The position numbers and the translations under genes are program-made. A stretch of DNA of 53,127 nt from a virus (lineage: Duplodnaviria; Heunggongvirae; Uroviricota; Caudoviricetes). A model generated the notes under the pieces. That model saw only the letters and a list, made by a program, of their open reading frames with translations. It searched no databases and was not told where the DNA came from. The DNA is taken from IMG/VR virus record IMGVR_UViG_3300047202_000291; one strand, 5' to 3'. Positions 6,387 through 36,515 of the stretch are shown one piece after another (the first letter of the stretch is position 1; the number at the start of each line of letters is the position of its first letter).

Positions 6387-7085
6387 ATGGAAAGGAATGT
6401 GGGCGTATCTATTATTATACCTTGTTATAATGAGGAGAAGCGTATTCCGAAAACAGTTCAGATTATGAACGCTTGGCTTAATACTCATCTGCAAGATGAA
6501 GTTATTTTCTCTGATGATGGTTCGGAGGACAATACGATTGAACAGATCTTTAATTTAAGAAAGCATACTCGAATGAAAATAATGGAATCAGGTTATAATT
6601 TTGGGAAATGGAATGCCATAAGAAAAGCCTTTTTTATGTGTAAGAATCCTTATGTGGTCTTGCTTGATGCTGATCTGTCAGTAGATCCTAAATATATAGA
6701 TGAATATGGGACCTTGCTTGAGCCGAATTGCCTTGTTCTTGGGAATAGGTATGGTAAGTATAAGTCAAAGGTGCCCTTGGCTAGGTTCATCTTAAGTAGG
6801 GGTTTTAATATCCTAGAGCGGCTTATTGTTGGGTTGAGGCTTCCAGATACTCAGGTTCCCTTTAAGATGATGGAACGAAGCCCAAAGATGGCGCAAGTCT
6901 TTGTTGAGCTTGAGGAAAGGAAGTTCACGGGCGATGTGGAGCTCATTAGGCGGGCTCAGCTTAAAGGAGTAAAGATGAGCTCAGTGGATGTTCAGTATGA
7001 GTTCAAGGAAGGGTCAACTGTTTTGTTCAAGAAGCATGCGTGGCCTATGTTTAAGGCTCTATGGGCTATAAGGAAAATAAGATAG
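6387..7085 (+). CDS. GT2 glycosyltransferase, dolichyl-phosphate-sugar synthase-like
   Basis: SIIIPCYNEE, SDDGSEDNT, GKWNAI, LDADLS, DTQVPFK, DVELI. Confidence 0.85.
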   Translation: MERNVGVSIIIPCYNEEKRIPKTVQIMNAWLNTHLQDEVIFSDDGSEDNTIEQIFNLRKHTRMKIMESGYNFGKWNAIRKAFFMCKNPYVVLLDADLSVDPKYIDEYGTLLEPNCLVLGNRYGKYKSKVPLARFILSRGFNILERLIVGLRLPDTQVPFKMMERSPKMAQVFVELEERKFTGDVELIRRAQLKGVKMSSVDVQYEFKEGSTVLFKKHAWPMFKALWAIRKIR

Positions 7086-9275: not shown

Positions 9276-10961
9276 ATGAAGAAAAGTTGGTTTCCTTGGA
9301 TCATTGTATCAATATTTTTTATTTTTTTATTTCTTTTAGTTTTTAATCTGTCTCTCAATCGCAGCATTTGGTTTGATGAGGGGTTTTCTACATTATATGC
9401 GCAAAAGTCAGTTAGTTATATCATTCAGCCACACGACGTACACCCACAATTTTATTATCTCATTCTTCACAGTTGGATAAAGATCTTTTCATCTAGTTTT
9501 ATATCACTTAGGTCTTTATCAATTATATTTGGGCTCTTGTCTTTTTTCTTGCTTTATAAAATTCTGAGGGTCTTGTTTAAAGGGGATTCAAGCGTCAATA
9601 AGAATACAATAGTTCTTGTGCTACTTTTATTTTCATTTTCATCAGTCTATTTGCATTATTTTACGGAGATTAGAATGTATGCGATGGCTCTTTTCTTTTG
9701 TCTATTGTCATTTTATCTTATGCTTACACAAACAGGAAGTATTCTGAAATTTTTGGCTTTCTGTTTTTGCACTGCCATTCTTCCTTATATTCATTATTAT
9801 ACTGTATTCTTTATATTGGGTGAGGTTTTATATACCTTCTTTTATTGGTTCAGGTCATCAGATTCTATTGGGAAGAAGAAAATAGCTTTTTCTTGGATGT
9901 TCATATTTATACTCACTATCCCAATTATAATTTATTTTTTTAAGCAGAGAGCAAGGATTGTGGGAATGTGGTTTCAAGGGCAGAGTTGGGCTTCTTTATT
10001 GTCAACAGTTCATTATGCTTTCTTTCATGTCAATGTGAATTTATTGTCAGATATATCATCTGTGTTGGGGCTTATATTTGTGTGTGTTGTGCTTGCCTTG
10101 GTATTAATTTTATATATTTGTAGGTTGGAGGGGGGTGAGAAGAAGCTTGCCTTGTGGTTGTTTTTGGCATATGCAATTCCGCCATTCTTGGGGATGGCGA
10201 TAAACAGGTTAATTATGCCAGTTTATCACCACAGGTTCTTCTTCTTTACAAGTTGGATTCTTGTTTTACTTGTGGGAAGAGCAATCTGTGTTCTTATGAG
10301 TGATGGAAAGAAATTGGGAAGAATAGTTGGTATTCTTAGCGGAATCTTGGTGTTATTTTTTGTTTTATTTAACTTACAAGTTTATTTCACTACTCAATCT
10401 TTTGAGCTTAGGGATACTAATGCCTGGTTACAGCAACAATGTGGTGATGATGTGAAGATTGTTATTCATGAATCACCATTTTCAATGTTGCCGGGCATGG
10501 TGCTCGCTCCTTGTTATCAGCACTATGTATATAGCGAGCTTAATGAAAAGGAATTTGCCAGTGCCGGGGGTGACGTAATAAATAAGGATCAGATAATCTC
10601 GAATAAAACAGAGCTATTGAAATTCGATAAGTTTTATTATATGCAGAGTGAAGCCGGTTCTTTGATTGTGCCTGGCTTTGATTATGAGACTATGTTTGTG
10701 ACAGATGGTCTTAATGTTACTTTGGCAACAAGGCAAGAGAATCAGTCGGTCTTAAATTCATTGGGTTATTCGAAAGAAGAGTATCTTATGAGCCTTAATG
10801 GAACTTGTCGAATGGCATCTGATTGTTTTATAAATAATTCCCTGGCCGGTTGTGAACAGCAAGCTTGTAATTGGTGTTGTAATGCCCTCGGAATGTTAGC
10901 CGGTTGTACTTTGATGTATTGTATGGCTGAAGAGGAAGTGCAGAGGTTGAATCTTACATGA
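9276..10961 (+). CDS. GT-C (family 39/PMT-like) polytopic glycosyltransferase with Cys-rich C-terminal appendage
   Basis: SIWFDEGFS, DVHPQFYYLILH, SLRSLS, EIRMYA motifs; about 12 TM segments. Confidence 0.8.
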   Translation: MKKSWFPWIIVSIFFIFLFLLVFNLSLNRSIWFDEGFSTLYAQKSVSYIIQPHDVHPQFYYLILHSWIKIFSSSFISLRSLSIIFGLLSFFLLYKILRVLFKGDSSVNKNTIVLVLLLFSFSSVYLHYFTEIRMYAMALFFCLLSFYLMLTQTGSILKFLAFCFCTAILPYIHYYTVFFILGEVLYTFFYWFRSSDSIGKKKIAFSWMFIFILTIPIIIYFFKQRARIVGMWFQGQSWASLLSTVHYAFFHVNVNLLSDISSVLGLIFVCVVLALVLILYICRLEGGEKKLALWLFLAYAIPPFLGMAINRLIMPVYHHRFFFFTSWILVLLVGRAICVLMSDGKKLGRIVGILSGILVLFFVLFNLQVYFTTQSFELRDTNAWLQQQCGDDVKIVIHESPFSMLPGMVLAPCYQHYVYSELNEKEFASAGGDVINKDQIISNKTELLKFDKFYYMQSEAGSLIVPGFDYETMFVTDGLNVTLATRQENQSVLNSLGYSKEEYLMSLNGTCRMASDCFINNSLAGCEQQACNWCCNALGMLAGCTLMYCMAEEEVQRLNLT

Positions 10962-13478: not shown

Positions 13479-13733
13479 TCAGATTATTTTTTCAAGATTG
13501 ACTTTGGTTAAGTCAAGTTTATTCAGTAAATTCCAGATCCTCGTGAATTCTCTGTCTCCAACATCTTTTCTTATTTGCTGGATTTTTTCACCATAGAACA
13601 GAGTTTCATTATATACGAAGGATCTGCTAAGCAGGACAGTTGTATGCTCTTGTTTGCGTAAAGCTTCTAAGCGTTTACATAAGTCTTTATCAATTCTGAC
13701 ACTGATAGCTTCTTTTCGCTCGTTTAAAGCCAT
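13479..13733 (-). CDS. Ribbon-helix-helix (CopG-like) regulator
   Basis: EAISVRIDKDLCKRLEALRKQE; TATA 24 nt upstream. Confidence 0.75.
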   Translation of the reverse strand: MALNERKEAISVRIDKDLCKRLEALRKQEHTTVLLSRSFVYNETLFYGEKIQQIRKDVGDREFTRIWNLLNKLDLTKVNLEKII

Positions 13734-13756: not shown

Positions 13757-13824
13757 TATTTAAATTTTTCCATTTGTATTTTTTGTATACTATGTGATAC
13801 AATTTGCACCAAGGTTTATAAATA
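13757..13824. promoter_or_regulatory. Divergent archaeal promoters flanking a palindromic operator candidate
   Basis: TTTAAATA on minus (13757-13764), TTTATAAATA on plus (13815-13824), TTGTAT-N8-ATACAA at 13783-13802. Confidence 0.55.
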
Positions 13825-13866
13825 ACCCCACCAATATAATCAATATTATCGTATGGAGGTATAAAA

Positions 13867-14037
13867 ATGACTTATGTAGGAAACAACTATAGCAAGGCAG
13901 ACTTCCAGAACATCGTTGTAGACGGTCTAGGAACCGTTGGTGCAGCGTTTGTCAGCTGGGTAGACTTGATCGTGCTGTTGATTGTTCTCGGCTTCATTGT
14001 CGGAATATTCATCAAGCTCGGCAACCTCTTTAAGTAA
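13867..14037 (+). CDS. Putative major coat protein A (56 aa; not in ORF track)
   Basis: MTYVGNNYSKADFQNIVVDGLGTVGAAFVSWVDLIVLLIVLGFIVGIFIKLGNLFK; TATA plus GGAGGT SD; C-ending codon bias. Confidence 0.75.
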   Translation: MTYVGNNYSKADFQNIVVDGLGTVGAAFVSWVDLIVLLIVLGFIVGIFIKLGNLFK

Positions 14038-14107
14038 ATGGGTTGAAAATTATTTGTTTTTTTGATTAAATACAATGATAGTTAAAAACTCTGAAGGAGG
14101 ATAAAAA

Positions 14108-14275
14108 ATGACATATACCGCAAATTACAATAAAGCCGACTTTCAGAACATAGTTGTTGATGGTCTAGGAACAGTAGGCGCTGCCTTTGTTTCATGGCTT
14201 GATTTAATTGTGTTGCTGATTGTGCTTGGGTTTATTGTGGGTATCTTCATAAAACTGGGCAACCTCTTTAAGTGA
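14108..14275 (+). CDS. Putative major coat protein B (55 aa; tandem paralogue; not in ORF track)
   Basis: MTYTANYNKADFQNIVVDGLGTVGAAFVSWLDLIVLLIVLGFIVGIFIKLGNLFK; GGAGG SD; 46/47 aa identical to A over the C-terminal part. Confidence 0.75.
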   Translation: MTYTANYNKADFQNIVVDGLGTVGAAFVSWLDLIVLLIVLGFIVGIFIKLGNLFK

Positions 14276-14299: not shown

Positions 14300-14327
14300 T
14301 TTTTTTATTCTTTTTTTCTTCTTATTC
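14300..14327 (+). terminator. T-rich terminator after the coat-like genes
   Basis: TTTTTTTATTCTTTTTTTCTTCTTATTC. Confidence 0.55.
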
Positions 14328-14380: not shown

Positions 14381-15676
14381 ATGAGAAAATACTGGCTTGC
14401 CTTGTTCCTATTGGTGGTCGTTCCTATGGTTTTGGCAATAAATAAGCCCATATTTGAGAATCCGATTCTGTCATATAAGAACTTATCATATAATCTTTCT
14501 TGGGTGCCTTCAGATAATGTGGCATATCGGTTGTTCTTTAATAATACGCAAATTTTTAATGGTTCAACAAATTCTTATTTATTCTCGCTCAATAATTTTA
14601 GTTCAGGAAATTTCTCTTTGCTTGTTAATGCGACAGATTTAAATGGATCGGATATAGGTCTTGGTTGGCTTTTTTTCACAGCGAATACTGCGCCAACAAA
14701 ACCAGGATTGACGGCTTGCTCTTCAGCAGATATATCTCTTGGGCCGATTGTCTTTAATATCACTGCTTCAACTGATGTAAATTTGGATCCGGTTATGTAT
14801 TTATTATATGCAAATGATGTGAGTTTAGCAAATTTCACGGGGGTCCAATATAATTTGACAAGCTTCTCTGAAGGTAATTTTTCTTTTAAGGTATGTGCAA
14901 GCGACGGTTATGCTCAAACTTGTTCAGATCCTGTAGCTGTAAGCATTTCTAACGGAACGATCCCCCAGATTAATTCTGTGTCTTATGGCTACGGGATACC
15001 TTTTTATGGAGATATTCAAGTAAGGGTTATCTCAATTAATGTGAGTATAGCCGATTTGAGGGAGAATCAGGTTAATGCTTCAATCTATGCATCGAACAGC
15101 GATTATTATGATGAAGACGATAATATAACTAGATATGCAACTTGTTCGAAGATAGCTGACATTGGCGGTATAAAAACATATAATTGTTCTGTGCAGATAA
15201 GTTATTTGATGCAGCCAGGATTTTATGATGTGCATATTTATGCATTCAATGGGTTTAAATCAGCAGATAAGGTTTTCCAAGAGAAAGTAGGTATTGGGAC
15301 TTTGCTTTCTTATGGAACTTCTTCTCCGATATTTGATTTCGACAACACATATAGCGATTGGACCTATACGAATCCTGTGGCAAATATAACAAATTTAGGC
15401 AACGTCCCTTATTCTGATGTTGGATTAGAATTGAAGAATATGACTTGCCCCCACAATTATGATTATCCTTTGGCATCCTTTAGATTTAGTAAGAGGGATA
15501 ATAGAGGATCAGCATTTCTTGCGGAGAACGGGTTTCAATGGCTCGATTTGGCCATTTCAAGAGGAATTTCTCATGACTTATATTTCTTTTTAAGTAATCC
15601 TGATGAGACTATCCCAGATCATCCCACTGAATGTGATGCTCGTTGGAGTCTTAAGTTAAAGTATATTGCGGGGTAA
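14381..15676 (+). CDS. Secreted Ig-like/beta-rich glycoprotein
   Basis: Signal peptide; about 19 N-x-S/T sequons in 431 aa by my count. Confidence 0.75.
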   Translation: MRKYWLALFLLVVVPMVLAINKPIFENPILSYKNLSYNLSWVPSDNVAYRLFFNNTQIFNGSTNSYLFSLNNFSSGNFSLLVNATDLNGSDIGLGWLFFTANTAPTKPGLTACSSADISLGPIVFNITASTDVNLDPVMYLLYANDVSLANFTGVQYNLTSFSEGNFSFKVCASDGYAQTCSDPVAVSISNGTIPQINSVSYGYGIPFYGDIQVRVISINVSIADLRENQVNASIYASNSDYYDEDDNITRYATCSKIADIGGIKTYNCSVQISYLMQPGFYDVHIYAFNGFKSADKVFQEKVGIGTLLSYGTSSPIFDFDNTYSDWTYTNPVANITNLGNVPYSDVGLELKNMTCPHNYDYPLASFRFSKRDNRGSAFLAENGFQWLDLAISRGISHDLYFFLSNPDETIPDHPTECDARWSLKLKYIAG

Positions 15677-15681
15677 GAATC

Positions 15682-16833
15682 ATGAGAAATAAATTTTATA
15701 TTGGGTTGATTGGCTGTTTATTATTATTGGTAATGGCACCATTTTCAAGAGCAGTTGGTGTGGCAAGGCCATTCTTTTCAGATAATACCTTTGATATGGA
15801 GGCCAATGAATCAGATTCCATTGGCTTTCAGCTTCAGAACGGCGAGGATACCTCAAAAACCTTAGTCCTTAAGATTTCTGCACAAAATCCTTTTGAAATC
15901 GAAGGCGGTTCTTTTTATGAGAAACAATTTACTTTGACTTCGGGCGAAGTTAAGAATGTGCCGATTGAGTTTTATTCTGAACAAGAGGGTCTTTACAGGG
16001 TAGATTATGGGTATTCTGAAGTTTGTTCAGGAGGAGGCACTGTTTGTTTTAATACAGAAATTACCGACTCATTTTTTGTTCAAGTTGGAGATGACGATAC
16101 TTATTATGGTTTTGACATACCGCTTGTTTATGGGAGATTTAGGCTTAATACAGAATCAAGGACCATAACCGACATCGATGATTTGGTTATTTCAAGTAAT
16201 TGGTCGGATATTGACTTTTCAGATTCGACCGTTGATCTGACCGGCTTTAGGGAAGAATATGTTGATGTGGGGCAAGGATTTGTGTCCATAAGCAGTTTTC
16301 CGGGATTAAACTATCCGGCGAGGATTATGCTTAGGGATATCGAGAGTAACTATAGGATTTATAAGGACGGGATTCTCTGTCCGCTCAATATATGTGAAAA
16401 TATATATTATACATCGAGCAACAAAAAGCTTTATTTTGATGTGACGGGCTTTTCAAGATATGAGGTGCGATACGATTCTTCTATCGGGGGTTCAACAAAT
16501 ACTGGGGGAAACACCGGCGGTTCTACAGGAGGAATAATTACGCCGCCAAAGAATAATACAAATAGCACAAATAATACGATGATAATGCCAGAAGAACCAG
16601 TCATTAATCATGTACCGGTTAGTCCGAATCCAAGTCTTCAACCGGCAAATATTTCGAAATTAACAGATACTCCGAGTCCTTTTGCAAAGAATAATAAATC
16701 AAATGAAGTGATCGCGCCAGTATCAACAGAGGGTAAGCTCCGGTTGATAAAGGCAATTTTTTATGGGTTTCTGGCACTTATATTTGCAGGAGTATTGATA
16801 TATTATGTGGGAAAAGATGCTACTCCACAATGA
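15682..16833 (+). CDS. Membrane-anchored surface protein
   Basis: Signal peptide; DGILCPLNICENIYY...FDVTGFSRY domain; G/T/N/P linker; C-terminal TM. Confidence 0.75.
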   Translation: MRNKFYIGLIGCLLLLVMAPFSRAVGVARPFFSDNTFDMEANESDSIGFQLQNGEDTSKTLVLKISAQNPFEIEGGSFYEKQFTLTSGEVKNVPIEFYSEQEGLYRVDYGYSEVCSGGGTVCFNTEITDSFFVQVGDDDTYYGFDIPLVYGRFRLNTESRTITDIDDLVISSNWSDIDFSDSTVDLTGFREEYVDVGQGFVSISSFPGLNYPARIMLRDIESNYRIYKDGILCPLNICENIYYTSSNKKLYFDVTGFSRYEVRYDSSIGGSTNTGGNTGGSTGGIITPPKNNTNSTNNTMIMPEEPVINHVPVSPNPSLQPANISKLTDTPSPFAKNNKSNEVIAPVSTEGKLRLIKAIFYGFLALIFAGVLIYYVGKDATPQ

Positions 16834-16933
16834 AAAAGACGAAAATAGAGAAATATTTAAATACTAGGGTACCTATACTGATTGTAGTCGTAGGTTTGTT
16901 GTTCTTGAGATTTATTGACATTGAGGTGGAATC

Positions 16934-17527
16934 ATGAAAAAGATACTTTGTTTAGTTTTGTTTCTATTGTTGTTGTTGCCCATTGTTCTTTCAGCAGATT
17001 ATGTGCCTACGGGAAGGGCGGATTTTGCAGTCTATGCTGATCCAAATCCAGAGCTTTCTGATTTTGTTTATACCACAGTTAAGATAAATGAGTCGGTCTA
17101 TCCAAACGAAGTGTTTCAATGCATAACTATGGTTTTTGCGAACCAAAGTGGGACTAATATTCATGTGCAGTCAAATCCACCCCATATTAATCCGGCGAGG
17201 TATTTGATTCTTAATCCGAATGAAGAGATGCAGACGTCCCCGGAAGCACTGGGCTATTTTCCAGTGCATAATGGCATAGCGAATGTCTATTATCGTTCTA
17301 AGGATATAATCGCATATAATTCCTTCTTATATGTAATTTTTTGTAATTCAAATCAGACTCAATTAGTCTATGAAGAATATTTGAATCCTGTTTATAAGGA
17401 GATGGGTAAAAGTTTGCCTTCTAGGGGTGTGTGGTTTGCTAAGTCGGAGAACGCCAGTACATTTGCCATCGTAGCGGCATTTATTTTGCTGCTTCTGATG
17501 TTTATATATTATAGGTTCACTAAGTAA
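16934..17527 (+). CDS. Type I membrane protein
   Basis: GAGGTGG SD; signal peptide; C-terminal TM plus basic end. Confidence 0.75.
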   Translation: MKKILCLVLFLLLLLPIVLSADYVPTGRADFAVYADPNPELSDFVYTTVKINESVYPNEVFQCITMVFANQSGTNIHVQSNPPHINPARYLILNPNEEMQTSPEALGYFPVHNGIANVYYRSKDIIAYNSFLYVIFCNSNQTQLVYEEYLNPVYKEMGKSLPSRGVWFAKSENASTFAIVAAFILLLLMFIYYRFTK

Positions 17528-17540
17528 ATGGGGGCAACTG

Positions 17541-19271
17541 ATGAAGGTTTATGTTATTTTATTAGCAACTTTATTAGCTATAAATTTTGTAATGGCGGCG
17601 CAGCCGATGCAGCAATCGAATAAAATATATTTGGATCCATTTTATAGACAATCTATGTTGTTAGGAACAAACTATACCTATTTAATAAAAGTTAATCCGC
17701 CAGATGGCATAAGTTCGGTGGTTTCAGCAATAATTTCATTTGATATTTATATGACTCCATCGGTTAATTTTTCGTTATCAGTAAATGGTCAGAAATGTAA
17801 TACTCCTTGGTTTTATGTTTCAACAACTTTTGCATCTGCAGGTCAGGCAAGAGTGAATTTTGATTGTAATAATATTATCAATAAGTCCGGAACTTATACT
17901 GTGGTTCTGAGGGCGACCCAGGCAAACACCGGTTCCGTTTCTGGTTGGCTTGATTTGACCTACATGAATAATCCTGCAGGAACAGTCGAAGTTTCAGGAA
18001 CGGAATATCAGGTTGGAGATACGGCAACCACCTTTTTGCAGCTTAAGGATGATCAGGGTCTGCCAGTAAATAATGGTGCTTGTTACCTTGATGTTTACTA
18101 TCCGACAAGTTATAATGCGACTCATACAAAATGGCTAGATAATGTTCCGATGATATTTAAGGGAGGTGGCATGTATTACTATGATGTGGTTGTTCCAAAT
18201 TATACTGGGGTTTATATGACTGCTGCGACTTGTTATTATGCTTATAATTGGGTTTGGATATATCCGTATAATGAACTTGTTTATTATCCGGTTAGAGCAG
18301 CTAATTCTGGAATTTGGGGTGGAGCAGAAGCGAACCTGAATAATCCGGAAGATGGGGTTTATGATGAGTGCACTACCTCGGGAAGTGGGACGTGTCAAGC
18401 TAATTATACTTTTAATATTTCTCAATATGGATCAATAAGTAATATAACTAATATTAATTTATATTATCTTGGAGAAGATACTTCTTCTAAAGTCTTAACT
18501 GTGGCATATTGGAACGGGACGGCATTTGTTAATTTAGCAAATACACTAACTTTTGTTGCCACCGGTTCGGCCACCGTTCCCTCTGGAATAGATCAATTTT
18601 TAACTAATGTAATCCCGTTAAATGGAATAATAAATAATCAGACTGTAATTATAAGATTAACGGTAGTTCATACTGGAACTGCAACTATGTATGATAATTG
18701 GTTGTCGCTCGGAGTATTAAATGCAAAGGGGACTATTCAGGAGCTTAAGGGAAGTAGTGAGATGCATGTTTCTAGTCAGTTGACTGTTATACAGCTTTTA
18801 TTGAATGATATTTGGACTTATATTCAGAATATCTGGAATAAGCTTCTTGGGATTGAAGTTACAGTAAATGCTACCTATAATAATACAAATACAATTATAA
18901 GTCGACTGAATGGAACGGGAAAAATAGCAGAAGTTTTGAATCAATCTACATTAAAGTTCTTGAGTAATATATATTATGCAACAGATTCTGGAAGGCTTTA
19001 TGTTCAGGCACTAAAAGGGGATTTGCCAGCGAATGATTTAAGTTGCTATTTAAATGCATATTATCCTAATGGGAGCATATATGTTGGTGCATCAATGACG
19101 TCAATAGGTTCAAATGGGCTGTATTACTATAATATAACTCCTTCAGTTAGAGGAGTTTATGCTACATCAGTAAATTGCACAAGCGGAGCATTTGGTGGTA
19201 GGACTCTTTATACTGCCGGAAGCTTTGAAGCTTTAGTTTTACCTCAAGATCAAATATCGGTGATAAGTTAA
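17541..19271 (+). CDS. Secreted spike-like protein with two MG2/Ig-like domains and a helical stalk
   Basis: Signal peptide; TEYQVGD...CYLDVYYP...GVY...C and a second CYLNAYYPNG...GVY...C copy. Confidence 0.7.
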   Translation: MKVYVILLATLLAINFVMAAQPMQQSNKIYLDPFYRQSMLLGTNYTYLIKVNPPDGISSVVSAIISFDIYMTPSVNFSLSVNGQKCNTPWFYVSTTFASAGQARVNFDCNNIINKSGTYTVVLRATQANTGSVSGWLDLTYMNNPAGTVEVSGTEYQVGDTATTFLQLKDDQGLPVNNGACYLDVYYPTSYNATHTKWLDNVPMIFKGGGMYYYDVVVPNYTGVYMTAATCYYAYNWVWIYPYNELVYYPVRAANSGIWGGAEANLNNPEDGVYDECTTSGSGTCQANYTFNISQYGSISNITNINLYYLGEDTSSKVLTVAYWNGTAFVNLANTLTFVATGSATVPSGIDQFLTNVIPLNGIINNQTVIIRLTVVHTGTATMYDNWLSLGVLNAKGTIQELKGSSEMHVSSQLTVIQLLLNDIWTYIQNIWNKLLGIEVTVNATYNNTNTIISRLNGTGKIAEVLNQSTLKFLSNIYYATDSGRLYVQALKGDLPANDLSCYLNAYYPNGSIYVGASMTSIGSNGLYYYNITPSVRGVYATSVNCTSGAFGGRTLYTAGSFEALVLPQDQISVIS

Positions 19272-19714
19272 TGGGCAAAAATAAAATAATAATGACATTT
19301 GTAATTTTGGTGATTATTGTGGTTGTCGCAATAGCTGTTAAATTAATATTTTCAGATAAGAAGGAGTTGGAAAAAATTATTATTGATACTGGCGATGGTG
19401 AATTGACCATTGTTTCAAAGACAGAGTATGTTCCTGGAGATGAAGGTCAGATTATAGCTTCATTAAGGGATAAGAATTTCAATAATATCAATGCTTCATG
19501 TGACGCTATTGCTTTATATCCAAATAAGAGTATTTTTTTAAGTCAGTCAATGGTTTCAAATATTATGGAGAATTATTTTATTAATTTTTCAATTCCAAGA
19601 ATCGATGGTGTTTACGAGTATAAGGTAAATTGTTCGTGGGATAATAGGCAAGCAGTTGCTAGCAGTTCATTTCATGTATCGAAAGGAAGGATGAAAGCAT
19701 GGATCGAGAAGTAA
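19271..19714 (+). CDS. Signal-anchored single MG2/Ig-like domain protein
   Basis: TEYVPGD...C...YP...GVYEY..C...SFHVS. Confidence 0.7.
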   Translation: MGKNKIIMTFVILVIIVVVAIAVKLIFSDKKELEKIIIDTGDGELTIVSKTEYVPGDEGQIIASLRDKNFNNINASCDAIALYPNKSIFLSQSMVSNIMENYFINFSIPRIDGVYEYKVNCSWDNRQAVASSSFHVSKGRMKAWIEK

Positions 19715-20742
19715 AATCTAGGACATCAGAAATAATTCTTATCTTTATCATAGTTATAGCCATCTGCGGGTTGGGTATTGTGGCAATAAGTCAGTTTGGC
19801 AATAGCTACTTTGAGCAGCAGCCTTCTTTAGCCTCAAATCAGGAAAGAAGGCTTGTTGCTAGGGTAAAGGGCTCTATTTATGAGAATAGCGAGCAGATGT
19901 CAGTCTTTGGAACCTGTGTCGATTCTTACGATGTGCCCGTAATTAATTCAACAGGCACTTTTTATGCCTGGTTTCCAAATGGGACCCAATATCTCTTGAG
20001 TCAACCAATGACGCAAATGGCCGAAGGTTATTTTGTGTGGCAAGGGGCAATGCCTATTGTGGGAGGAACATATTTGACAGAGTTTATCTGTGATGGTCTC
20101 GGTCAGCAGGCAAGGGCCTGGGGAGAGTGGCAGAATCCAGTATGGGTTAATAGAATCGCAGATATTCTAAGTTTGACAAATTATTCTTATTTATTGCTTC
20201 AGGACGTAAATGGTAATGTAGTTTCAATTAATGCAACGGTTAATGAGATAATTGATATTTTGAATAATCTTAATATAAGCTTGAATTGGTCGATAGTTTT
20301 AAATGCAATTAATGAGAGCACAACCAATATCATACAGAATATCACTTTCTTGCAGCAGACTATGGAGAATGATTTCAATCAGACAAATCAGCTAATCTTG
20401 GATACCCAAGTTATCGCTAATGCTTCGGTGGATAGGACAGATTCTTATCTGGCTTGGTTGCTCTGGAAGATAATCAATGGAACCGGATCGCCAATAAATG
20501 GTAGCGTTACTTGGGACGAATATTATGTGGATAGGGTTGCTTATTGGCATAGTTGGACAATCAAAATTAAAGTTTATGATGAATATGGTTCAATAGTTAG
20601 AAGTCCGTTGGCATATTGTACAATTGAGACTAATATGCATCCTTTACAATATATGGTTTCGGAGGGAGATCACTTTACAATTACCTTATTTATTAATCAA
20701 CTGGATGATTTGAGTTGGATAACATTTTGTTCGAGGGTATGA
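19699..20742 (+). CDS. Signal-anchored Ig-like plus coiled-coil spike protein
   Basis: KGSIYE..E.MSVFG.C...GTYLTE...GEWQNP.WV.RI.D shared with 39570. Confidence 0.7.
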   Translation: MDREVKSRTSEIILIFIIVIAICGLGIVAISQFGNSYFEQQPSLASNQERRLVARVKGSIYENSEQMSVFGTCVDSYDVPVINSTGTFYAWFPNGTQYLLSQPMTQMAEGYFVWQGAMPIVGGTYLTEFICDGLGQQARAWGEWQNPVWVNRIADILSLTNYSYLLLQDVNGNVVSINATVNEIIDILNNLNISLNWSIVLNAINESTTNIIQNITFLQQTMENDFNQTNQLILDTQVIANASVDRTDSYLAWLLWKIINGTGSPINGSVTWDEYYVDRVAYWHSWTIKIKVYDEYGSIVRSPLAYCTIETNMHPLQYMVSEGDHFTITLFINQLDDLSWITFCSRV

Positions 20743-20796
20743 ATCTGGGAATAATGAGAACATTTAAATATTTCAATAGGGATGGAAGGTGAGAGG

Positions 20797-23661
20797 ATGA
20801 AAAAAACAGCAATTATTTTACTGCTTGGCTTGCTTTTGGTAGTTGCATTTACAGAGGCTTCATTTAGGTGTGTGGATGGTTCAACAGATGATACGTGCAC
20901 TGTAATGATTGTTGCGCCGGTCATGAATGTAGCCAACGAGTCTTTTATTAAGATTTGGGGATGGACTAATTCTTCTTTTACCGAAGTTAATTCATATGCT
21001 TTGCCAAGCGGAGATAGTGTTCAAGGGGGAGTTGCTTGTTATAAGGAACAGTGTTATTTTAAGGTAATAGGTACGTCTGGAGGGATATATTCCCTTAACA
21101 TGGTTTCTGGGTCTGCCGTAGCGCACCCCGCATTTTCCGGTAGTAATTTTTATGATGAGAACACCACGCCAGTTTTTTTGCCAGTCGATTCAGATTCCTG
21201 TCCTTTAATAGGCGGATCTCCGGCTTCTTTTTCGCTAAATGAAGGGCATACGGTAACAGTAACTATAGGTAGTTCGGATTATGAGATTACTTTAGACGAT
21301 GTAACATCCCAATGGGCAGCTGATTTTACTATAGATGGAGTGCCTTTCAGTCTTTATTTAAACACTCCGGTTTCTATTGATGTTAATGTGGCTATTGAAG
21401 TAACGGCAGTTAGGACTCATTCAGTTGATTTTAGGCTTATTGTTGGGGGAGGTACTGGAGGAACATATACTGAAGATGTTTTGCTGGCGTTCAATATGTA
21501 TCGTGGCAGTATAAAGGATTGTTCTGCTGGCGTTATAGGTTTGAATTTTACCTTAAGTTCAGTTAATTACGCTGAAAGTTCTTATTCAACATATACGGAT
21601 GATTCTCTTTGTCAGAGAAAAGCGTCAATGGTTGTTCCAAAAGGGACAAATGGAGTTCTTGGCTTTGTTGTAGTGCTTAATCCAGATCCGGACGTTTCAT
21701 CATCACAAAATTCAACAAAATTAACATATATTGAGAATGATTTTTGTGATATTAATCCAGAGACAGCAAGATTCGAAAAAAACACAGTAATTAAGGATCT
21801 TGGGGTAGATGTTTCTGTGACGTGTTTAAGCAATGTGGTTAGGGGTAGGTGTAATAGTGAGGGGGATGTAGATTATGCTTTTATATATGGGACGAATAGC
21901 GATCCGACTCATCTAACCGCCGCCTGTATAGATTCAAATGGTTATCTTAAATATGAGATGTCACTTGATGCAAATTGTTCGGATCTCGTAAATGATATTT
22001 CAGTAACAGAGATTTCACCATATAGTTATTATGATGGGTTTATTTTTGGAAAAGGAATAATCAGCTTTGAGGATGTTGCAAATGGAGTCGCATTATCTCT
22101 TAGGAAACCATCAACGGGAAATTCATCCATATCACAGCAGCTGTTGGGGAATAGTATCCCGGTAGATTTTAACGGGGATAATTTATTTGATTTAATTACA
22201 ATGAATACAACCGATTTGATGTTTTATCTGGGAAACGCTGTGGGGGAGAAAATAACCGCCGGATCTTTGGCAGTGAACAGGCTCTATCCTTGTGATATAG
22301 ATTTTTCAATTGAGCCAAATGGGATTGGTCAAGTAGGTGTAATAGCAACAGTTCCTTCTCCATCAAATAAGCAAAGTTATTATTATACTGCTAACTTCGG
22401 TGATGGTTCGGAGACGATTACTCAGGATCCTAGCAATCCTTTGCAATCATCCCCTGATTTATTTCAACATACCTTTAAGGAACCGGGGAATCATACAGTA
22501 AATGCTTCGGTTTGTCTTAAGAATGGCACAAAACCAGATCCGTGTGCCTCTTCGACTTGTGTCTTGGTAGCGCCATATAATGTAACTAAAGTCGATCCAG
22601 TTGATCCAGGTCCCGGGGAGTGTTTAGGAAAAAATCTTGGGTTCGTGATAGATAATCCTGCGATTATAGATATTTGTGCAGATGCCTATGGTTATATTAA
22701 CTTCAATGGTTTGGGTAAATTTATGGCTGCGAAGAAAGAGGTTTGTGATCAGAGATCAGGTCATGTGACGTTTTATGTAAAGATGCAGGATTCGGGCGCA
22801 AAGGCGGATTTGGTGCTTAGAAGTGCTACAAATCCATTTGAAGGTTCTGGTGGATATCTGGCTCAATTGAAAATAGAAGGGTCAGTCTTTAAGGTATTTA
22901 AGAATAGTACATGGACTATTGTAAAAAACAATGTTTCGTTGAATACCTGGCATAGGATAAAGATAGAGGTAGATACTCAGGTGAGGAAAGCATATTATTA
23001 TCTGGATGATGAAGCAGATTCATTTTATTCAGCAGCCTTTTTGGATGTGACAGTTAAAAGTTTATTTAATACCCAGATTATGATAAAATACTTTGGAGGG
23101 AATTTTTGGTTTGATAAGTCTCCTTGGGGTTGTGTTGTTACTGGGGCAATAACAATTCCGCAGGTGAATAAATTGATTGATAATTTTGAAGCTTGCGGGA
23201 TGAGTATAAATATATTGTCTGGTTGCGACCCAACTAATGGGACGTTATATTCGGCGGCAGTTAAGGCGGGAGCAGCATCAGATTCTTATGATAATGTTGC
23301 GGGGTTTTGCAGAAGCAAAGATACGACTCTTTTAGCTTGTTACGATCATAGCGAAAGCAATAATAGGGTTTGTACCTATGAGGATTTGAAGAACATAGTG
23401 AATATAAGACCAGCTTGTACAGCGGAAGTGATGAATTATTGTGTGGATTTCCTATATAAATTGAAAAGCGGAGGTCAGGCATCAGATGGTGTTGTAGTTT
23501 GTTCAGCAACTCTTGGATTTGGTGTCGCGATGGATAAGGTAACTGTGCCAATTATCTCTTATGTATATAGGATATTTTTAGCAAATTGGCTTGAGATTGC
23601 GCTTTTGATAGTGGGCTTGATTGTGATCTTTACAATAATAGGATTGAAGAAAAAAACTTAA
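20797..23661 (+). CDS. Large Cys-rich surface protein (FG-GAP-like, PKD-like and lectin-like segments; C-terminal TM)
   Basis: Signal peptide MKKTAII; PVDFNGDNLFD; ANFGDG...HTFKEPGNHTV; TM-GLKKKT; TATA at 20763-20770. Confidence 0.75.
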   Translation: MKKTAIILLLGLLLVVAFTEASFRCVDGSTDDTCTVMIVAPVMNVANESFIKIWGWTNSSFTEVNSYALPSGDSVQGGVACYKEQCYFKVIGTSGGIYSLNMVSGSAVAHPAFSGSNFYDENTTPVFLPVDSDSCPLIGGSPASFSLNEGHTVTVTIGSSDYEITLDDVTSQWAADFTIDGVPFSLYLNTPVSIDVNVAIEVTAVRTHSVDFRLIVGGGTGGTYTEDVLLAFNMYRGSIKDCSAGVIGLNFTLSSVNYAESSYSTYTDDSLCQRKASMVVPKGTNGVLGFVVVLNPDPDVSSSQNSTKLTYIENDFCDINPETARFEKNTVIKDLGVDVSVTCLSNVVRGRCNSEGDVDYAFIYGTNSDPTHLTAACIDSNGYLKYEMSLDANCSDLVNDISVTEISPYSYYDGFIFGKGIISFEDVANGVALSLRKPSTGNSSISQQLLGNSIPVDFNGDNLFDLITMNTTDLMFYLGNAVGEKITAGSLAVNRLYPCDIDFSIEPNGIGQVGVIATVPSPSNKQSYYYTANFGDGSETITQDPSNPLQSSPDLFQHTFKEPGNHTVNASVCLKNGTKPDPCASSTCVLVAPYNVTKVDPVDPGPGECLGKNLGFVIDNPAIIDICADAYGYINFNGLGKFMAAKKEVCDQRSGHVTFYVKMQDSGAKADLVLRSATNPFEGSGGYLAQLKIEGSVFKVFKNSTWTIVKNNVSLNTWHRIKIEVDTQVRKAYYYLDDEADSFYSAAFLDVTVKSLFNTQIMIKYFGGNFWFDKSPWGCVVTGAITIPQVNKLIDNFEACGMSINILSGCDPTNGTLYSAAVKAGAASDSYDNVAGFCRSKDTTLLACYDHSESNNRVCTYEDLKNIVNIRPACTAEVMNYCVDFLYKLKSGGQASDGVVVCSATLGFGVAMDKVTVPIISYVYRIFLANWLEIALLIVGLIVIFTIIGLKKKT

Positions 23662-23670
23662 GGTGAGACT

Positions 23671-24975
23671 ATGAAAAAAGCAATATTTATTTTATTGGCA
23701 ATGAGTATATTATTGGTATCATTTTGTTTTGCGCAGGGAAACGGGACTAATAATTATCTCAAGATTTCGAATGTAACTTTTATACCTTCATATAGGTATA
23801 GTGTGGAAAATCCTCCGTCAGAGTTGCCTCTTGGATGTAATGATTTTATGGAAATGCACGCAGATGTTGAGGATGCATGTCAAGGTACGGTCGGAGCAGT
23901 TGGTGTTAGGGATGTAACCTTCGATTTACTTGTGCTTGATACGAGTAATTCTCCGTTAGGGCAGCCATTGGGTAATGCGACAGTTCTTTTGAGGAAAAGC
24001 ATTCCGGGGGTTCGAGTTAGTGGAAATGAGACGAAGGGGCATTATTATGCGCAATATACTGTATATCCGGTCTTTTCTCCAAATTCAAATCCAAAGATCG
24101 AATATGAGTTTCTTGATGTGCATGTAACGACGAGAGAGGATTCGGTTGGTTATTGTGAGGTTGGTTTCTCCGGATCTGGAATTGGGCAATCTCAATGTGG
24201 TCTTAATGCTGATGAGACTCCGCTTTATTTATATTGTTTTGGTACGGATGTGTTGGAGGATTATCCGGGATTCTCATATTCTGGGAGAATGTTTAATTCA
24301 ACTTGTTTATGTAGTTCAACAGCCACACAAAGTAATTGTACCATTTGGAATTATTATAATACCTCTTGGGCAATAGTTGCTGGATGTGAGGGATCAACCT
24401 ATGAAAGTGGGTTGCTTGCTCCCTGTGATTATTGCGATCCATTATGGACTCCCCAATATAGTAGCTGTAGTGTAGATGATTACGGGACAATGACTGGAAC
24501 AATGGCGAAAGCATATACTTCATTAGGTAGGGATCCTAATAATCCATCCCAGTCTTGTGGTGATGCAACAAGGAATACCATAGGTCAGATTATATTTAAT
24601 CATCCGGGAGGGGCTTCAGACACCAAAGCACCATATGATTCTGGAGCCGAGATTTCTTGTTCAATTGATGCCTGGTTAAGGGGAGATCATGATATGTATG
24701 CGACCGGAAAAAACACGATTCCTGCAATAGGAGATAAGAAAGTTGTTAATTTTGAGAATATGCAGGTAACTAACTTTACATTTGGTTCAACTTTCCAGCC
24801 CTTGATGTTCGATGTAGATTATGATGGGCGAAATGATGTATTTGTTATCGGGTCCGGTAAGATATATGATTATAGTATAAATCCAGGTAGCAATATTTAT
24901 TTAAAAAGGTCATTAAATACAGCATACACTTTCACAGGGCAGCCAGCAATTTATGGAGTGGAGGAGCTGGTTTAA
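23671..24975 (+). CDS. Secreted Cys-rich protein, apparently C-terminally truncated
   Basis: Signal peptide; ends shortly after FG-GAP-like FDVDYDGRNDV with no anchor. Confidence 0.65.
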   Translation: MKKAIFILLAMSILLVSFCFAQGNGTNNYLKISNVTFIPSYRYSVENPPSELPLGCNDFMEMHADVEDACQGTVGAVGVRDVTFDLLVLDTSNSPLGQPLGNATVLLRKSIPGVRVSGNETKGHYYAQYTVYPVFSPNSNPKIEYEFLDVHVTTREDSVGYCEVGFSGSGIGQSQCGLNADETPLYLYCFGTDVLEDYPGFSYSGRMFNSTCLCSSTATQSNCTIWNYYNTSWAIVAGCEGSTYESGLLAPCDYCDPLWTPQYSSCSVDDYGTMTGTMAKAYTSLGRDPNNPSQSCGDATRNTIGQIIFNHPGGASDTKAPYDSGAEISCSIDAWLRGDHDMYATGKNTIPAIGDKKVVNFENMQVTNFTFGSTFQPLMFDVDYDGRNDVFVIGSGKIYDYSINPGSNIYLKRSLNTAYTFTGQPAIYGVEELV

Positions 24976-24996
24976 TTCGCAAGAGGGGCGAAGGAA

Positions 24997-25071
24997 ATGC
25001 AGAAGTATAAGGTATTGATTATTCTGGTAATTATTGCCCTAAATTTGTTTTCGAGCGTGATGTTTAAATGA
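24997..25071 (+). CDS. 24-aa signal-peptide-only mini-ORF
   Basis: MQKYKVLIILVIIALNLFSSVMFK*; GAGGGG upstream; TGA overlaps ATG 25068. Confidence 0.4.
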   Translation: MQKYKVLIILVIIALNLFSSVMFK

Positions 25072-28000
25072 AAAAAATATTTTTATTTATATTGATGTTT
25101 GTCTTTTCAATATATTATACTCATGCTTTCAGTGGTTCTGGTGATGGGACCGGAAGCAATCCTTTTCAAGTAACTGATTGTTTGCAATTACAGGAAATTG
25201 AGCTTAATTTAACTGCTAGTTATATTGTAATGAATAACATTAATTGCAATGATACAATTAATTGGAATGGCGGGGCAGGATTTATACCGATTAGTAGCTT
25301 CTCAGGTTCTTTTGGCGGAAGAGATTATGTTATCAGTAAATTATATATATATGATACTCGTTCATATCCGAGAACCACCGGTTTATTTGGTTGGTTTGGT
25401 CCTGGTACTATCAGCAATGTATTTTTAGAAGATGTTAATATAACGGGATCACATGGATCTTATTCTTGTGATGTTGGTGGATTAGTGGGTTTTCAAAATG
25501 GGGGAATAATTTCTGGTTCTCATGTTACTGGAAGCGTAAAGTCAGGCATTATTGTTGGCGGGTTAGTGGGTAATAAAAATCAGGGAATTATTATTAATTC
25601 ATATTCTGCTGCGAATGTAGTGGGAGATCGGGACGTGGGTGGATTAACAGGCTATAATTATGGGCCCATAAGTAATTCATATTCTATTGGAAATGTAACG
25701 GGGAATAGTTATGTTGGTGGATTAATAGGATCTAATCGAGGGGGAGTTGTTAATTCATATTCTGTTGGGCGTGTAGTGGGGGGTGGTAGTTATGTTGGTG
25801 GATTAGCAGGGCGCGATACAGGAGGTTTTACTAATTCATATTGGAATAACGAAACAAGTAATCAAAACACAAGTGCGGGTGGAGAAGGTAAAACAACAGC
25901 CGAGATGAAACAACAAGCAACCTTTGTTGACTGGGATTTTGCTAATATTTGGACTATTGATGGGGGAGTGACCTATCCAGATTTAATAACAGAGGAACAT
26001 CTCGAATGTCTTGTTGATTCTGATTGTGGGCTTTGTGATGGATGTGAATTTGGACTGTGCGTTGTGCAGCCCATGTATGAGGACCTAAAAGATGAATGTC
26101 CAATAAGTTTTAATGCTTGTTTGAACAACTATACCCTACAAGGTCCGGGCGGTTTTTGTGGTGGTCATATGTTCCAGAAGGGCGTGTGTGATGTAAGTTC
26201 TGGGGCGGCTAATGTTAGTGTTGGAAATGTTTGTATCAACGGGACAGATACTAATCCAACTTCTGGAGTTAATTGCGGAATATGGAAGAATTGTATATAT
26301 GAAAATACGTTTGCCAACGAATATTATGTAGGTTATATTGGAGATGGAACAGATACTTGTATTGATACAGATTGGCAGCCAACAGGAACAATATGGAATG
26401 CTAGTGTTGATTATTACGTAAAAACGACTGAACATGCAGAAACTTGTCAAGAATGGAGTCGCGCACTGGGTTGGGCATGGTCGGGTTCTTATGGTGCAAG
26501 TGAAGGAACGATTGTTTTAAAAAATGCTGTTGTTTCAGTGTATGGGGGAGTCATATCTTTAGCCTATGCAGACGATACTTACATTACGACTACCTGGCCA
26601 GTCGATGTAGAAGGATATACTTTTTATACTGTGCTTAATACTGGAGATTTGGATGAGGCATTTTTCTTTTGGATAAATTGGACCTCTAGAGATTATATTA
26701 TTGTTGCTTTAAATGTAGTTACGCAGACCTGGAGAAATGTAACTTTTGGGTCTTATTCTGACGATTTGGAATTCGAAGGGGTTAATTGTATATCTGTTGG
26801 AGAAGGATATAATGGTATTCCGAATGACGCTGAATGTTATATCCTATATTTAAATAACCTGACATTTGAGATACAAGGAATAATGGACGGCATTAATACG
26901 ATTGATAATTTAACCTATTTCGGGGGGTGGATTGGTTTTATAGGTGAAGCTAAAATATATGTGAGTCAAGAGAATAATTGGAATCTCCCTAATCGTCCTC
27001 CCGGCGGAACTATTGAAGATAGCGGGATTTGGGGTTGGGATGGATATTCTTGGAATCATGAAATTATCCATATAACGGGATGGTGGGATGGATATTATGG
27101 AGCAAGTATGATTGCTGAGTCATTAGATGGTCATAGGGCTTTAATCGCCAGTCCAATAGCTCATTTGATGATTTATGATAATGGTTCTTTTATTGATCAA
27201 GGTAGTGCTTGGTCCGGTCTTCAGATTGAGGAGTCCACCGGAAGAATTTGCATGAGCGGAGGGTGGAATAATAATATTCAGGTTAGTTGTATGGATTATT
27301 GGGGAGGTAATGATACTTGGGTGGCGGAAGTTGATGCATGTGTGCAGATAGCTACCCCGGAAAGTTGCGAAACGTGGCCGGGTAGTTTTAATGCCGACGG
27401 GTTTGATTGTAATGCAAATACTTCGGTATGCGCTATCGGGGGAATAATGAGGAGTTGGCCAAGTTGGGTGGGATTAATTTTTTATAATCATAGAGTTGCT
27501 CCGATAGCAATAGGTAGTATTATAACTCAAATAGCAATTCCAAATCCAGTTGCTTACGGGAGTATAACAACTTGGTCAGCAATACCGACGCATTCATTAG
27601 GTTATCAGAGCAATGTAACGATGACAATAAGCGGTGCTTGTCTTGATGTTTCATATTTAACATATGATTTTTTTGATGTAAATAGTGGAGATACAGTATC
27701 TTACCCATTTGACACAACACAATTTAATTCTAATGCTAATTGTACAATACATACGGTAGCGTACTTTACAAGCGGAGATGTGGCGAATGCTACAGATATA
27801 ATCCTTCAAGTAATAGGAGAAACAGAGGGCGAATTGGGTGGCCTTATTTGTTCAAATGGGCTTCCAGGAAGATGCACGACTTATCTTGCAGTTCCAATCT
27901 CTCCATATGTTAAATTTTTTGATTCTACTTTAGTGGAAGCTACGACGGTAAACATAGGTAAAAGCATTACTGGAGCGGGCATAGCATGTCATTTGAATAA

Positions 28001-30071: not shown

Positions 30072-31324
30072 ATAAAATGGCATTGAGTATCTGGGCGTTT
30101 ATTACGATTATTGGGGGAATAGGAATTGTTGTGGCTATTATCGGGAAGCTTTCTGGTGTGACGGAAGCATTAAAATTAGTGTTGGAATTTTTTGGACACG
30201 TATTTTCAACAATAAGGGATACATTTACAGCGATTACACACGTAGCGCCACCATTCATTAAGATAATTCTATTCTTGTTGATATTTTGGACAATGGGTGC
30301 TTTTTTGTTTTCAATGACAATAGGCGCCGCCTATGTGTGTCATCCACAATCAGGAGATTTATATCGGGGGTCTATCGATGAGATGATTATGTATTACATA
30401 TATCCAACCGGATCCTATGCTGAGCAGATTGCTTCTAATGATCAGTATTCTATCGAGGCTTTTAGACCCGGGGGGATATTTGGTGAATGGAATGAACCAA
30501 GTACAGATGAGTTTGGAGATATGGTTTTTTGGCAGACGCCAGCGATCTCTTCGAATTGTGGAGCAGATAACTGTCCTCCAGATGTTGGAATGTATTATAT
30601 AATTCCAAGCGAATATCCTTTTGAGGTAATAGATGGTTTTATCGCTAACGAAGAACCATTTGCATTTAAAATGTGTTACTTGCCACCACGAATAGGGCTT
30701 TCAAACGATTATGAGGTAACCTCTGGGACCTGTTATTTATCAGTTGAAAATTGTAGAGACCATGCCATTACTAATTTTGCTAAAGCTCCGAAGGCAGAGG
30801 AAATGTACCAATTCACATATCAATTAGATAATAAAGATAAGATATTTAATATTCGATTTAAACCAACGTCATCAAAATATGATTTGAATGATTGTACTGC
30901 TTTGCCAAATACTGGCGGAAATAATGTGCCGGAATCGGTCTATTTAAATGGAAACTACATTTCTTTAAAATTTAAGTTAAAAGAAGGGACTTTTGATTGT
31001 GGCGGAGCGGGTTGTATTGTTTATGATAGAACAATTAAGTCGATTGGGAGTCCTCAGGAAATTGTCACAAGGGAAAGTCCGGTTACTGCGAGAACTGTTT
31101 TTATGCAAAAAAACTTCAAAATGGTTAATTCTTTATCTAATCAATCAAATGATGAAAGTTCTTTATTTTCCTTTGCATGTGTTGAAGATAAGGATAGGCC
31201 GGGATTTTATGATGAGAATGAGACCTTTAAGATTCTTGGTATTCCGATTTTTGATATAAGGGTAATTTTAATTATAATTGGATTGACGGCCTTCTTTGGA
31301 TTAATTAGGCTAGTAAAGAGATAG
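30068..31324 (+). CDS. Polytopic membrane protein with a Cys-rich ectodomain
   Basis: N-terminal TMs, large Cys-containing loop, C-terminal TM. Confidence 0.7.
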   Translation: MNKMALSIWAFITIIGGIGIVVAIIGKLSGVTEALKLVLEFFGHVFSTIRDTFTAITHVAPPFIKIILFLLIFWTMGAFLFSMTIGAAYVCHPQSGDLYRGSIDEMIMYYIYPTGSYAEQIASNDQYSIEAFRPGGIFGEWNEPSTDEFGDMVFWQTPAISSNCGADNCPPDVGMYYIIPSEYPFEVIDGFIANEEPFAFKMCYLPPRIGLSNDYEVTSGTCYLSVENCRDHAITNFAKAPKAEEMYQFTYQLDNKDKIFNIRFKPTSSKYDLNDCTALPNTGGNNVPESVYLNGNYISLKFKLKEGTFDCGGAGCIVYDRTIKSIGSPQEIVTRESPVTARTVFMQKNFKMVNSLSNQSNDESSLFSFACVEDKDRPGFYDENETFKILGIPIFDIRVILIIIGLTAFFGLIRLVKR

Positions 31325-36514: not shown

Positions 36515-36515
36515 A

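Follow-up and report, generated by a model that had tools for sequence, protein, structure and literature searches.

Copies A and B, two tandem genes in the window analysed here (a stretch of 53,127 nucleotides, or 53 of the 117 kb of a contig of 117,127 bases), are both real genes under very strong purifying selection. On balance, we favour the reading that an uncultivated archaeal virus with a large genome (117 kb) uses their product as its major coat or envelope protein, and that the same small module, when found on other proteins, would serve to plug them into the shell. The two genes are arranged head to tail on the same strand:

13867–14037, plus strand: copy A, 56 amino acids, with a type-A N-tail of 12 residues that carries an N-Y-S sequon
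14108–14275, plus strand: copy B, 55 amino acids, with a type-B N-tail of 11 residues and no sequon

After its N-tail, copy A comprises a conserved core, a single transmembrane span and the tail KLGNLFK; the core of copy B is the same except for an L in place of V32. When the last 47 codons of the two ORFs were aligned from the stop codon, 29 differed, 28 of them synonymously and one by the V32/L replacement. These are exactly the figures given in the first-pass annotation, which had also placed an N-Y-S sequon in copy A only, as the sequence confirms. At the nucleotide level there were 32 differences, 27 of which fell at third positions. We ran 100,000 trials with 32 random substitutions each, and not one left the protein with a single amino-acid change or fewer. 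The other five reading frames differed between A and B at 13–29 of 46 residues and were interrupted by stops, save for one copy in one reverse frame; because these frames diverge so widely and nearly all carry stops, the annotated frame is the constrained one.

At positions encoding the same residue, 18 of 46 codons were identical in A and B, against 19.3 ± 3.1 expected for two independent back-translations drawn on the codon usage of the window. The silent sites are therefore saturated, and the DNA of the shared part (77% identity) is as different as the identity of the proteins allows. Together, the random-substitution trials, the comparison of frames and the saturated silent sites bear out the earlier statement that both genes are real and constrained. 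Between paralogues within one genome, pS ranged from 0.43 to 0.96, as high as between orthologues of different genomes; recent gene conversion between the copies could therefore be rejected. Where they encode the same residues, A and B draw on codon sets that are almost complementary, an arrangement that may reduce repeat recombination and tune expression.

Codon bias is an indicator of high expression where translational selection operates, and we used it as a proxy. Among two-fold codons ending in a pyrimidine, the fraction NNC/(NNC+NNT) was 0.18 for the genes of the window. Copy A scored 15/21 (binomial P 1e-7), the highest among 80 ORFs, and copy B 6/18. In the relatives, the copies ranged from 0.10 to 0.73, nearly all well above backgrounds of 0.17–0.19. 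The bias of copy A toward C-ending codons thus suggests a very high expression of the array genes. GC3 was 0.64 in copy A and 0.43 in copy B, with 0.33 for the window's genes.

Sequences resembling expression signals surround and separate the two genes:

13811–13824, plus strand: candidate archaeal promoter, AAGG followed by TTTATAAATA (13815–13824), 43 nt before the ATG of copy A
13855–13860, plus strand: Shine-Dalgarno sequence of copy A, GGAGGT (GGAGG at 13855–13859), with a 7-nt spacer to the ATG
14057–14063, plus strand: T7 run in the spacer between A and B, which might act as a partial terminator or an attenuator
14094–14100, plus strand: Shine-Dalgarno sequence of copy B, AAGGAGG, with a 7-nt spacer to the ATG
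14300–14318, plus strand: candidate archaeal terminator of the array, with T7 runs at 14300–14306 and 14312–14318

The candidate promoter, AAGG-TTTATAAATA, was recognised by its agreement with the archaeal BRE/TATA consensus. A AAGGTTTATA(A/T)A box with the same spacing to the first copy occurs in two close relatives (L001 and L002) and in the distant L014, and a TATA-like box also precedes the arrays of L005, L006 and L009, relatives more remote than L001 and L002. A GGAGG-type site precedes every copy in every relative, and downstream of the last copy every relative examined has T-rich runs. Thus the box, the ribosome-binding sites and the terminal T runs all recur in L001, L002, L005, L006, L009 and L014, the last being only 40–50% identical. 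The strong Shine-Dalgarno sequence that the first-pass annotation had assigned to each copy was found in both cases, 7 nt before the ATG and kept in the relatives; the TATA box and terminator it had ascribed to the pair are likewise present, but it had overlooked the T7 run between the copies. Because of this run, the pair may not be a single simple transcription unit. Runs of T7–T8 also separate the copies in L001 and L002, while none occur in L005 and L006, where the spacers are 17–33 nt long. The array may accordingly be one operon with optional attenuation. Taken together, the predicted promoter, ribosome sites and T runs fit a highly expressed gene.

A word-indexed search returned 130 clusters of homologues of 55–57 residues, 71–98% identical, all of them metagenomic and on contigs of up to 116 kb; in JGI data, the homologues are called hypothetical proteins. 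The family had no match in Pfam, PHROGs, NCBIfam, the PDB, GenBank phage records or IMG/VR. Hits to DUF4330, NB glycoprotein, LAXTG_small_WW and holins in Pfam, PHROGs and NCBIfam were at chance level, and a profile search of the PDB retrieved nothing but the first transmembrane helix of MsbA (E 0.05), which we took to reflect composition. Neither tblastn nor blastn found a match for the coat, the locus or the neighbouring P-loop ATPase (see below) in GenBank phage and archaeal-virus records, and scans of IMG/VR with the coat and with the ATPase recovered no relatives. Among the cellular genomes of 185,579 species (GTDB), the family occurred on one 56-kb contig only, binned in a 1.2-Mb MAG labelled Methanosarcinales. 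No description of the protein family or of the virus group was found in the papers searched.

The genes were always found in arrays of 2–5 copies, down to 37–50% identity. Syntenic contigs have three or four tandem copies, the MAG contig has two lying between homing-endonuclease-like ORFs, and the distant lineage L013 has two. In L014, also a distant lineage, there are three called copies, an uncalled fourth and a fifth further on. The uncalled ORF (5113–5286 of L014) lies between called copies and has a GGAGGTG site but no ATG, GTG or TTG start (possibly ATC); it could be either a copy with a non-canonical start or one in decay. In L009 (contig CAZPUM010000004.1, 6908–12229), the two coat genes have as neighbours, on either side, a total of three large ORFs (438, 542 and 583 amino acids), which share helix-turn-helix repeats and a homing-endonuclease-like middle part, an arrangement that suggests selfish insertions beside an essential gene.

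The N-tails of the family fall into three classes: class A, with 12 residues and often an N-Y-S/T motif; class B, with 11 residues; and class C, with 25–29 residues, a Cys...Cys loop and an N-x-T. A sequon (N-x-S/T) was present in 74 of 120 N-tails of homologues. Type A is an orthologous class across relatives, and since copy A belongs to class A and copy B to class B, the duplication predates these viruses. The 44-residue core is about 70% fixed across 95 homologues. W31 and D33 hardly vary, and close relatives all have G42xxxG46.

The charged residues of the protein are D12, D19 and D33 on one side and K50 and K56 on the other. A Kyte-Doolittle profile gave one hydrophobic peak at residues 34–50 with a shoulder at 13–30, and AlphaFold2 modelled the monomer as one continuous helix over residues 10–55 (pLDDT 95 over the span and 54–77 before it). 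Combined with the sequons in the N-tails, the ectodomains fused on the N-terminal side of the module (see below) and the existence of a Cys-loop class of N-tail, these features indicate that the N-terminus is outside, that a single span covers approximately residues 32–50 and that the basic tail is inside. A Foldseek search of BFVD with the monomer model gave nothing below E 4.8, a lone helix being uninformative for fold searches, and in a four-copy multimer prediction the chain's own fold came out uncertain.

The first-pass annotation had named a match to a pilin, a holin or another cellular family as an outcome that would speak against a coat protein; we looked for matches to pilins and holins, and there was none beyond chance level. 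A type IV pilin or archaellin was rejected, as these have a class III signal peptide and a hydrophobic helix at the N-terminus, whereas here the N-terminus is polar and the span C-terminal. A holin was rejected as well: the PHROG matches were at chance level (best E 0.35, 4 of 31 members) and the genomic context is a block of exported glycoproteins.

The immediate neighbourhood of the array includes the following:

13479–13733, minus strand: divergent 84-amino-acid gene, conserved beside the array; a possible small DNA-binding regulator
14381–31324, plus strand: block of ten exported-protein genes, directly after the array

An ORF of the same size and position as the 84-residue gene was found in L001–L006, and a 71-residue counterpart in L014 and L015. 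The gene at 13479–13733 had no Pfam or PDB match; judging from its N-terminal pattern only, it possibly encodes a ribbon-helix-helix regulator. In the ten-gene block, all proteins have a signal peptide or an N-terminal anchor, with 0.5–4.4 sequons per 100 amino acids and 2–50 Cys; five of the ten end in a C-terminal span plus a basic tail, and weak Ig-like, PKD and GLUG matches were observed. The order of array and exported block also holds in relatives, where the array always heads an exported, sequon-rich block.

A sharp split separates these genes from the block at 36128–50160, whose products are mostly tagged proteins (see below) that lack Cys and have hardly any sequons; exported proteins break the series at 39570, 43597 and 47814. 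Nearly all genes of the window (1–53127) are on the plus strand, and the GC skew, in 2-kb windows, was strongly positive throughout (0.13–0.36). Upstream of the array lie a family-2 glycosyltransferase (6387–7085) and a nine-span glycosyltransferase of the PMT_2 type (9276–10961), both also present in L001 and L005; these enzymes may glycosylate the coat N-tail and the spikes.

The module is not confined to small proteins. Searched exhaustively with HMMER, a set of 1.84 billion representatives yielded 59 matches, and in about 47 of these distant relatives (proteins of 114–2155 amino acids) the module forms the last ~50 residues. They include a signal-peptide Cys-rich protein and right-handed beta-helix/NosD proteins, and also bitopic proteins in which a Lys-rich N-terminus, a first span and a Gln-rich linker precede the module. 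Two further instances are found in the window itself:

44737–44892, plus strand: coat module forming the last 52 residues of the 432-amino-acid protein encoded at 43597–44895, which has a signal peptide, 21 Cys and sequons
46168–46449, plus strand: 93-amino-acid protein with a coat-like N-terminal module (first ~45 residues), a Lys-rich linker and the C-terminal peptide GW.Y..YRHSLAAKGI

The first of these modules is identical to copy B at 27 of 52 positions (BLASTP, E 1e-15) and matched the profile with E 2e-21; the second matched it with E 2e-17. The peptide GW.Y(E/D)S.RHSLAAKGI heads at least 10 Cys-free, sequon-free proteins in the 36128–50160 block, and is C-terminal instead in the 93-residue protein, possibly an adaptor that binds the tagged proteins to the membrane or the coat. 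Outside the arrays, the region 1886–4058 of L018 has a gene for a bitopic protein, composed of a Lys-rich N-terminus, a span, a linker and the coat module, at the third position after a Band_7/SPFH gene.

A C-terminal protein-sorting signal was considered as well and rejected: no NCBIfam model for PGF-CTERM or similar signals was among the matches at E ≤ 1, and the module is longer than a motif followed by a span and a basic tail. Its 50 residues include a conserved helix outside the membrane, and free-standing genes for it exist as well.

That a conserved transmembrane anchor is common to many exported proteins does not by itself make it a lattice subunit. Copies A and B are single-span proteins devoid of capsid homology, the module anchors many different exported proteins, and some module-bearing proteins are encoded beside a Band_7/SPFH gene; all this would also suit a membrane protein of the infected cell that is not in the particle, acting in egress, in exclusion or as a platform for membrane domains or cell-cell adhesion, with the module as a shared anchor or oligomerisation tag. 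We regard this as unlikely. Free-standing anchors in 2–5 tandem, near-identical and strongly expressed copies are hard to explain unless they have a bulk structural role, and the searches gave holin matches at chance level (best E 0.35) and no match to a sorting-signal family. The structural coat role is in turn strengthened, on circumstantial grounds, by the deep conservation of the 2–5-copy arrays, the top codon bias, the position at the head of the exported block and the reuse of the module on adhesin-like proteins.

Searches of the window against Pfam and PHROGs gave no match to a capsid protein, portal or terminase at E ≤ 0.01, and revealed neither a viral hallmark gene nor a candidate for a cytoplasmic capsid protein. 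The window also holds a Cas4-like nuclease, a PolX-like gene and an ATPase:

35107–36006, plus strand: P-loop ATPase of 299 residues, with Walker A GKQGGGKS and Walker B VLVDEQ; a candidate morphogenesis ATPase

The ATPase family co-occurs with the coat family on contigs of 90,826, 45,918 and 117,127 bases, and is putatively linked to the coat genes. Some homologues of the ATPase from the same virus group carry inteins (Pfam PF14890 and PF14528), and one homologue is labelled Woesearchaeota. The model of the ATPase (pLDDT 85) matched generic RecA/KaiC folds, the N-domain of Zot, inovirus Zot and ORF286 of ATV. Its language-model neighbours included an Atlas cluster of 251-residue 'DnaA-like' proteins from Thermoproteota (score 0.93, TM 0.49/0.57), an annotation that is also carried by B251 of SSV1. 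When the ATPase was compared with SSV1 B251, only the P-loop aligned (E 0.014; hhalign 33%), and identity to the His1 ATPase was 18% over 112 columns.

These data bear on the possibility that the small protein is associated with an internal membrane or an envelope, the real capsid (double jelly-roll, HK97 or other) being encoded elsewhere in the genome or being too divergent to detect. Membrane-containing icosahedral viruses encode many small membrane proteins, the window covers 53 of 117 kb, and A32-like packaging ATPases did appear, at low rank, in the fold search. Zot and ATV ranked above them, however, and the window gave no capsid, portal or terminase match. Moreover, the relatives are absent from IMG/VR, which picks contigs by viral hallmark genes, and the predicted N-out topology and the ectodomain fusions fit an outer layer. 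We therefore consider an internal-membrane role quite improbable.

The lack of a viral hallmark gene in the window would also agree with a large plasmid-like replicon whose small protein is a pilus or fibre subunit for DNA transfer or adhesion, and small hydrophobic helical subunits do build conjugative pili. Here, though, the hydrophobic part is C-terminal, so that the protein lacks a class III signal peptide; among the genes of the window we recognised neither a VirB4/HerA-type ATPase nor any other transfer gene, the ATPase present being small and Zot-like, and large N-terminal ectodomain fusions are atypical of pilins. A pilus or fibre subunit thus seems to us most improbable. We infer instead that the element is a virus, and its host is probably an archaeon.

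We now return to the favoured reading, a virion coat, and compare it with known systems. The features of the pVIII class of inovirus coats, including the leaderless Pf3 type, provide the first standard of comparison. In its membrane-bound form, such a coat resembles A and B in having ~45–56 residues, a net-acidic exposed N-terminal part, a semi-hydrophobic helix, one span with small-residue packing motifs and a basic inner C-tail; moreover, both inoviruses and this element have a P-loop ATPase that is Zot-like by fold. The Pf3-type layout proposed in the first-pass annotation (acidic N-tail, semi-hydrophobic helix, one transmembrane segment, basic tail, no leader) is accordingly upheld by sequence, hydropathy and the single predicted helix.

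The differences are nonetheless substantial. Only two basic residues occur in the A/B tail, the coat genes are in multiple tandem copies, and the module is found naturally at the C-terminus of large proteins. The element is of archaeal type, with TATA boxes and N-glycosylation sequons. Whereas inoviruses have ssDNA genomes of 5–10 kb, A and B lie on a 117-kb contig together with DNA enzymes and glycosyltransferases. No inovirus coat model was among the Pfam (E ≤ 10) or PHROG (E ≤ 1) matches, and of the inovirus genome traits (small ssDNA, rolling-circle, pI/pIV genes), only the Zot-like ATPase fold fits.

Pleolipoviruses (HRPV-1 VP3/VP4 type) offer a second comparison: from genomes of 7–17 kb they build a vesicle-like particle with spikes anchored at their C-terminus, and they encode a small membrane protein as well as a P-loop NTPase. 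The present element may share this particle concept. The spikes of pleolipoviruses are not known to have an anchor in common with the small protein. A and B also differ from that group in having no sequence match in GenBank virus records, and 117 kb far exceeds 7–17 kb.

The likeness to fuselloviruses and His1 is of another kind. These viruses also have small, very hydrophobic alpha-helical proteins, nearby large glycosylated and C-terminally anchored proteins, and a small P-loop ATPase in the genome; His1, by its annotation, has a small hydrophobic capsid gene along with signal-peptide proteins bearing C-terminal anchors. Fusellovirus VP1 and VP3 are adjacent paralogues with a near-identical C-terminal helix, and the first-pass annotation was right in saying that the tandem pair recalls them, the adjacent arrangement of paralogues being parallel to that in SSV1. 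At the DNA level the two cases are opposite, as the shared part of SSV1 VP1 and VP3 is identical at 61 of 61 positions and that of A and B is at the identity floor.

Family membership is another matter, for inoviruses as for fuselloviruses and His1. The profile search against inovirus and spindle-virus capsids that had been suggested as a check was run and gave no match. In particular, PF06281 (VP1_VP3) and PF25665 (His1_capsid) did not match any of 31 members at E ≤ 10, nor did they find anything at E ≤ 10 on the genome of a relative (G001). Hhalign probabilities were 0.4% against SSV1 VP3 and 0.3% against His1 VP21. Among the 100 nearest language-model clusters, the only named families were His1_capsid (0.80) and VP1_VP3 (0.77), both below the 0.9 that we took as the level of a lead. 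SSV1 VP1 and His1 VP21 show two hydropathy peaks with a trough, while A and B show one peak and a shoulder. In SSV19 VP1, both termini are on the inner face and the loop is outside (PMC9351363), whereas here the N-tail would be outside, judging from the sequons in 74 of 120 N-tails and the point at which ectodomains are fused.

We also considered that the protein might be a very divergent true homologue of the SSV1 VP1/VP3 and His1 VP21 hairpin, with helices at 10–31 and 33–55. The language-model neighbourhood, with no named families other than His1_capsid and VP1_VP3, would agree with this, as would the tandem paralogues (as in SSV1), the possibly B251-like ATPase nearby and the lower confidence (54–77) of the first half of the AlphaFold helix. 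Against it stand the failure of either Pfam model to match the 31 members at E ≤ 10, hhalign probabilities below 1%, one hydrophobic peak rather than two, a model that is one continuous helix, and N-terminal sequons and ectodomains where VP1 has inward-facing termini (PMC9351363). We judge such a homology very improbable. Predicted spindle viruses of Asgard, ANME-1 and nanohaloarchaea are reported to have two capsid paralogues, and the genomes of published predicted spindle viruses reach 72.6 kb (PMC9894754; 10.1101/2025.02.15.638363). As far as can be told from sequence, A and B are most like a membrane-inserted helical coat protein that is a member of neither the inovirus nor the spindle-virus family.

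If the small protein is indeed a coat or envelope protein, a mechanism can be outlined. The leaderless protein of 55–56 residues would insert in the membrane of the host; its N-tail, which is short and often glycosylated, would face out and its basic tail in, as its charges, sequons and fusions suggest. Through small-residue motifs (DG.GT.GA for the outer helix, G42xxxG46 for the span), the helices could then pack side by side into a dense layer. The fusions that place the module at the C-terminus of adhesin-like proteins are observed, and such proteins would presumably co-assemble into the layer, as might the versions of the module that are extended by a Lys-rich segment at the N-terminus or by an address peptide at the C-terminus. 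Co-assembly would display spikes outside and tether internal proteins or DNA inside. Like those of fuselloviruses, pleolipoviruses and inoviruses, the particle would bud or be extruded at the membrane, and the Zot/B251-like ATPase encoded nearby may drive this step. With several tandem copies under the control of a single strong promoter, the needed amount of protein would be supplied, and the conserved N-tail classes A, B and C would provide surface variants.

A bolder form of this proposal, which we put forward only tentatively and think doubtful as it stands, is that the protein builds the shell of a widespread, unrecognised lineage of archaeal viruses of >100 kb, as a single-span, inovirus-like helix in a membrane, with the module as a universal plug. 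The particle would then contain no jelly-roll, HK97 or hairpin capsid protein. By natural coat fusion, adhesins would be plugged in on the outside, and Lys-rich DNA-binding segments and the address-peptide adaptor on the inside. The scrambled silent sites would reflect selection for identical proteins while preventing repeat recombination.

Whatever the role of its product, the pair is a clean case of tandem duplicates that encode a near-identical protein with DNA at the minimum possible identity. If A and B do form a particle, they would represent a new family of capsid proteins, and would extend the use of small, helical, membrane-inserted coats from genomes of 5–75 kb to about 117 kb. The family would also be a search handle for a large and abundant group of archaeal viruses that current pipelines miss, given that it has no relatives among IMG/VR or GenBank viruses and yet forms 130 metagenomic clusters. 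The fusions would amount to a natural coat-fusion display, suggesting how such particles gain host-binding proteins. Should the reading as a lineage of >100 kb hold true, it would mean a new principle of virion building and a new class of major capsid protein.
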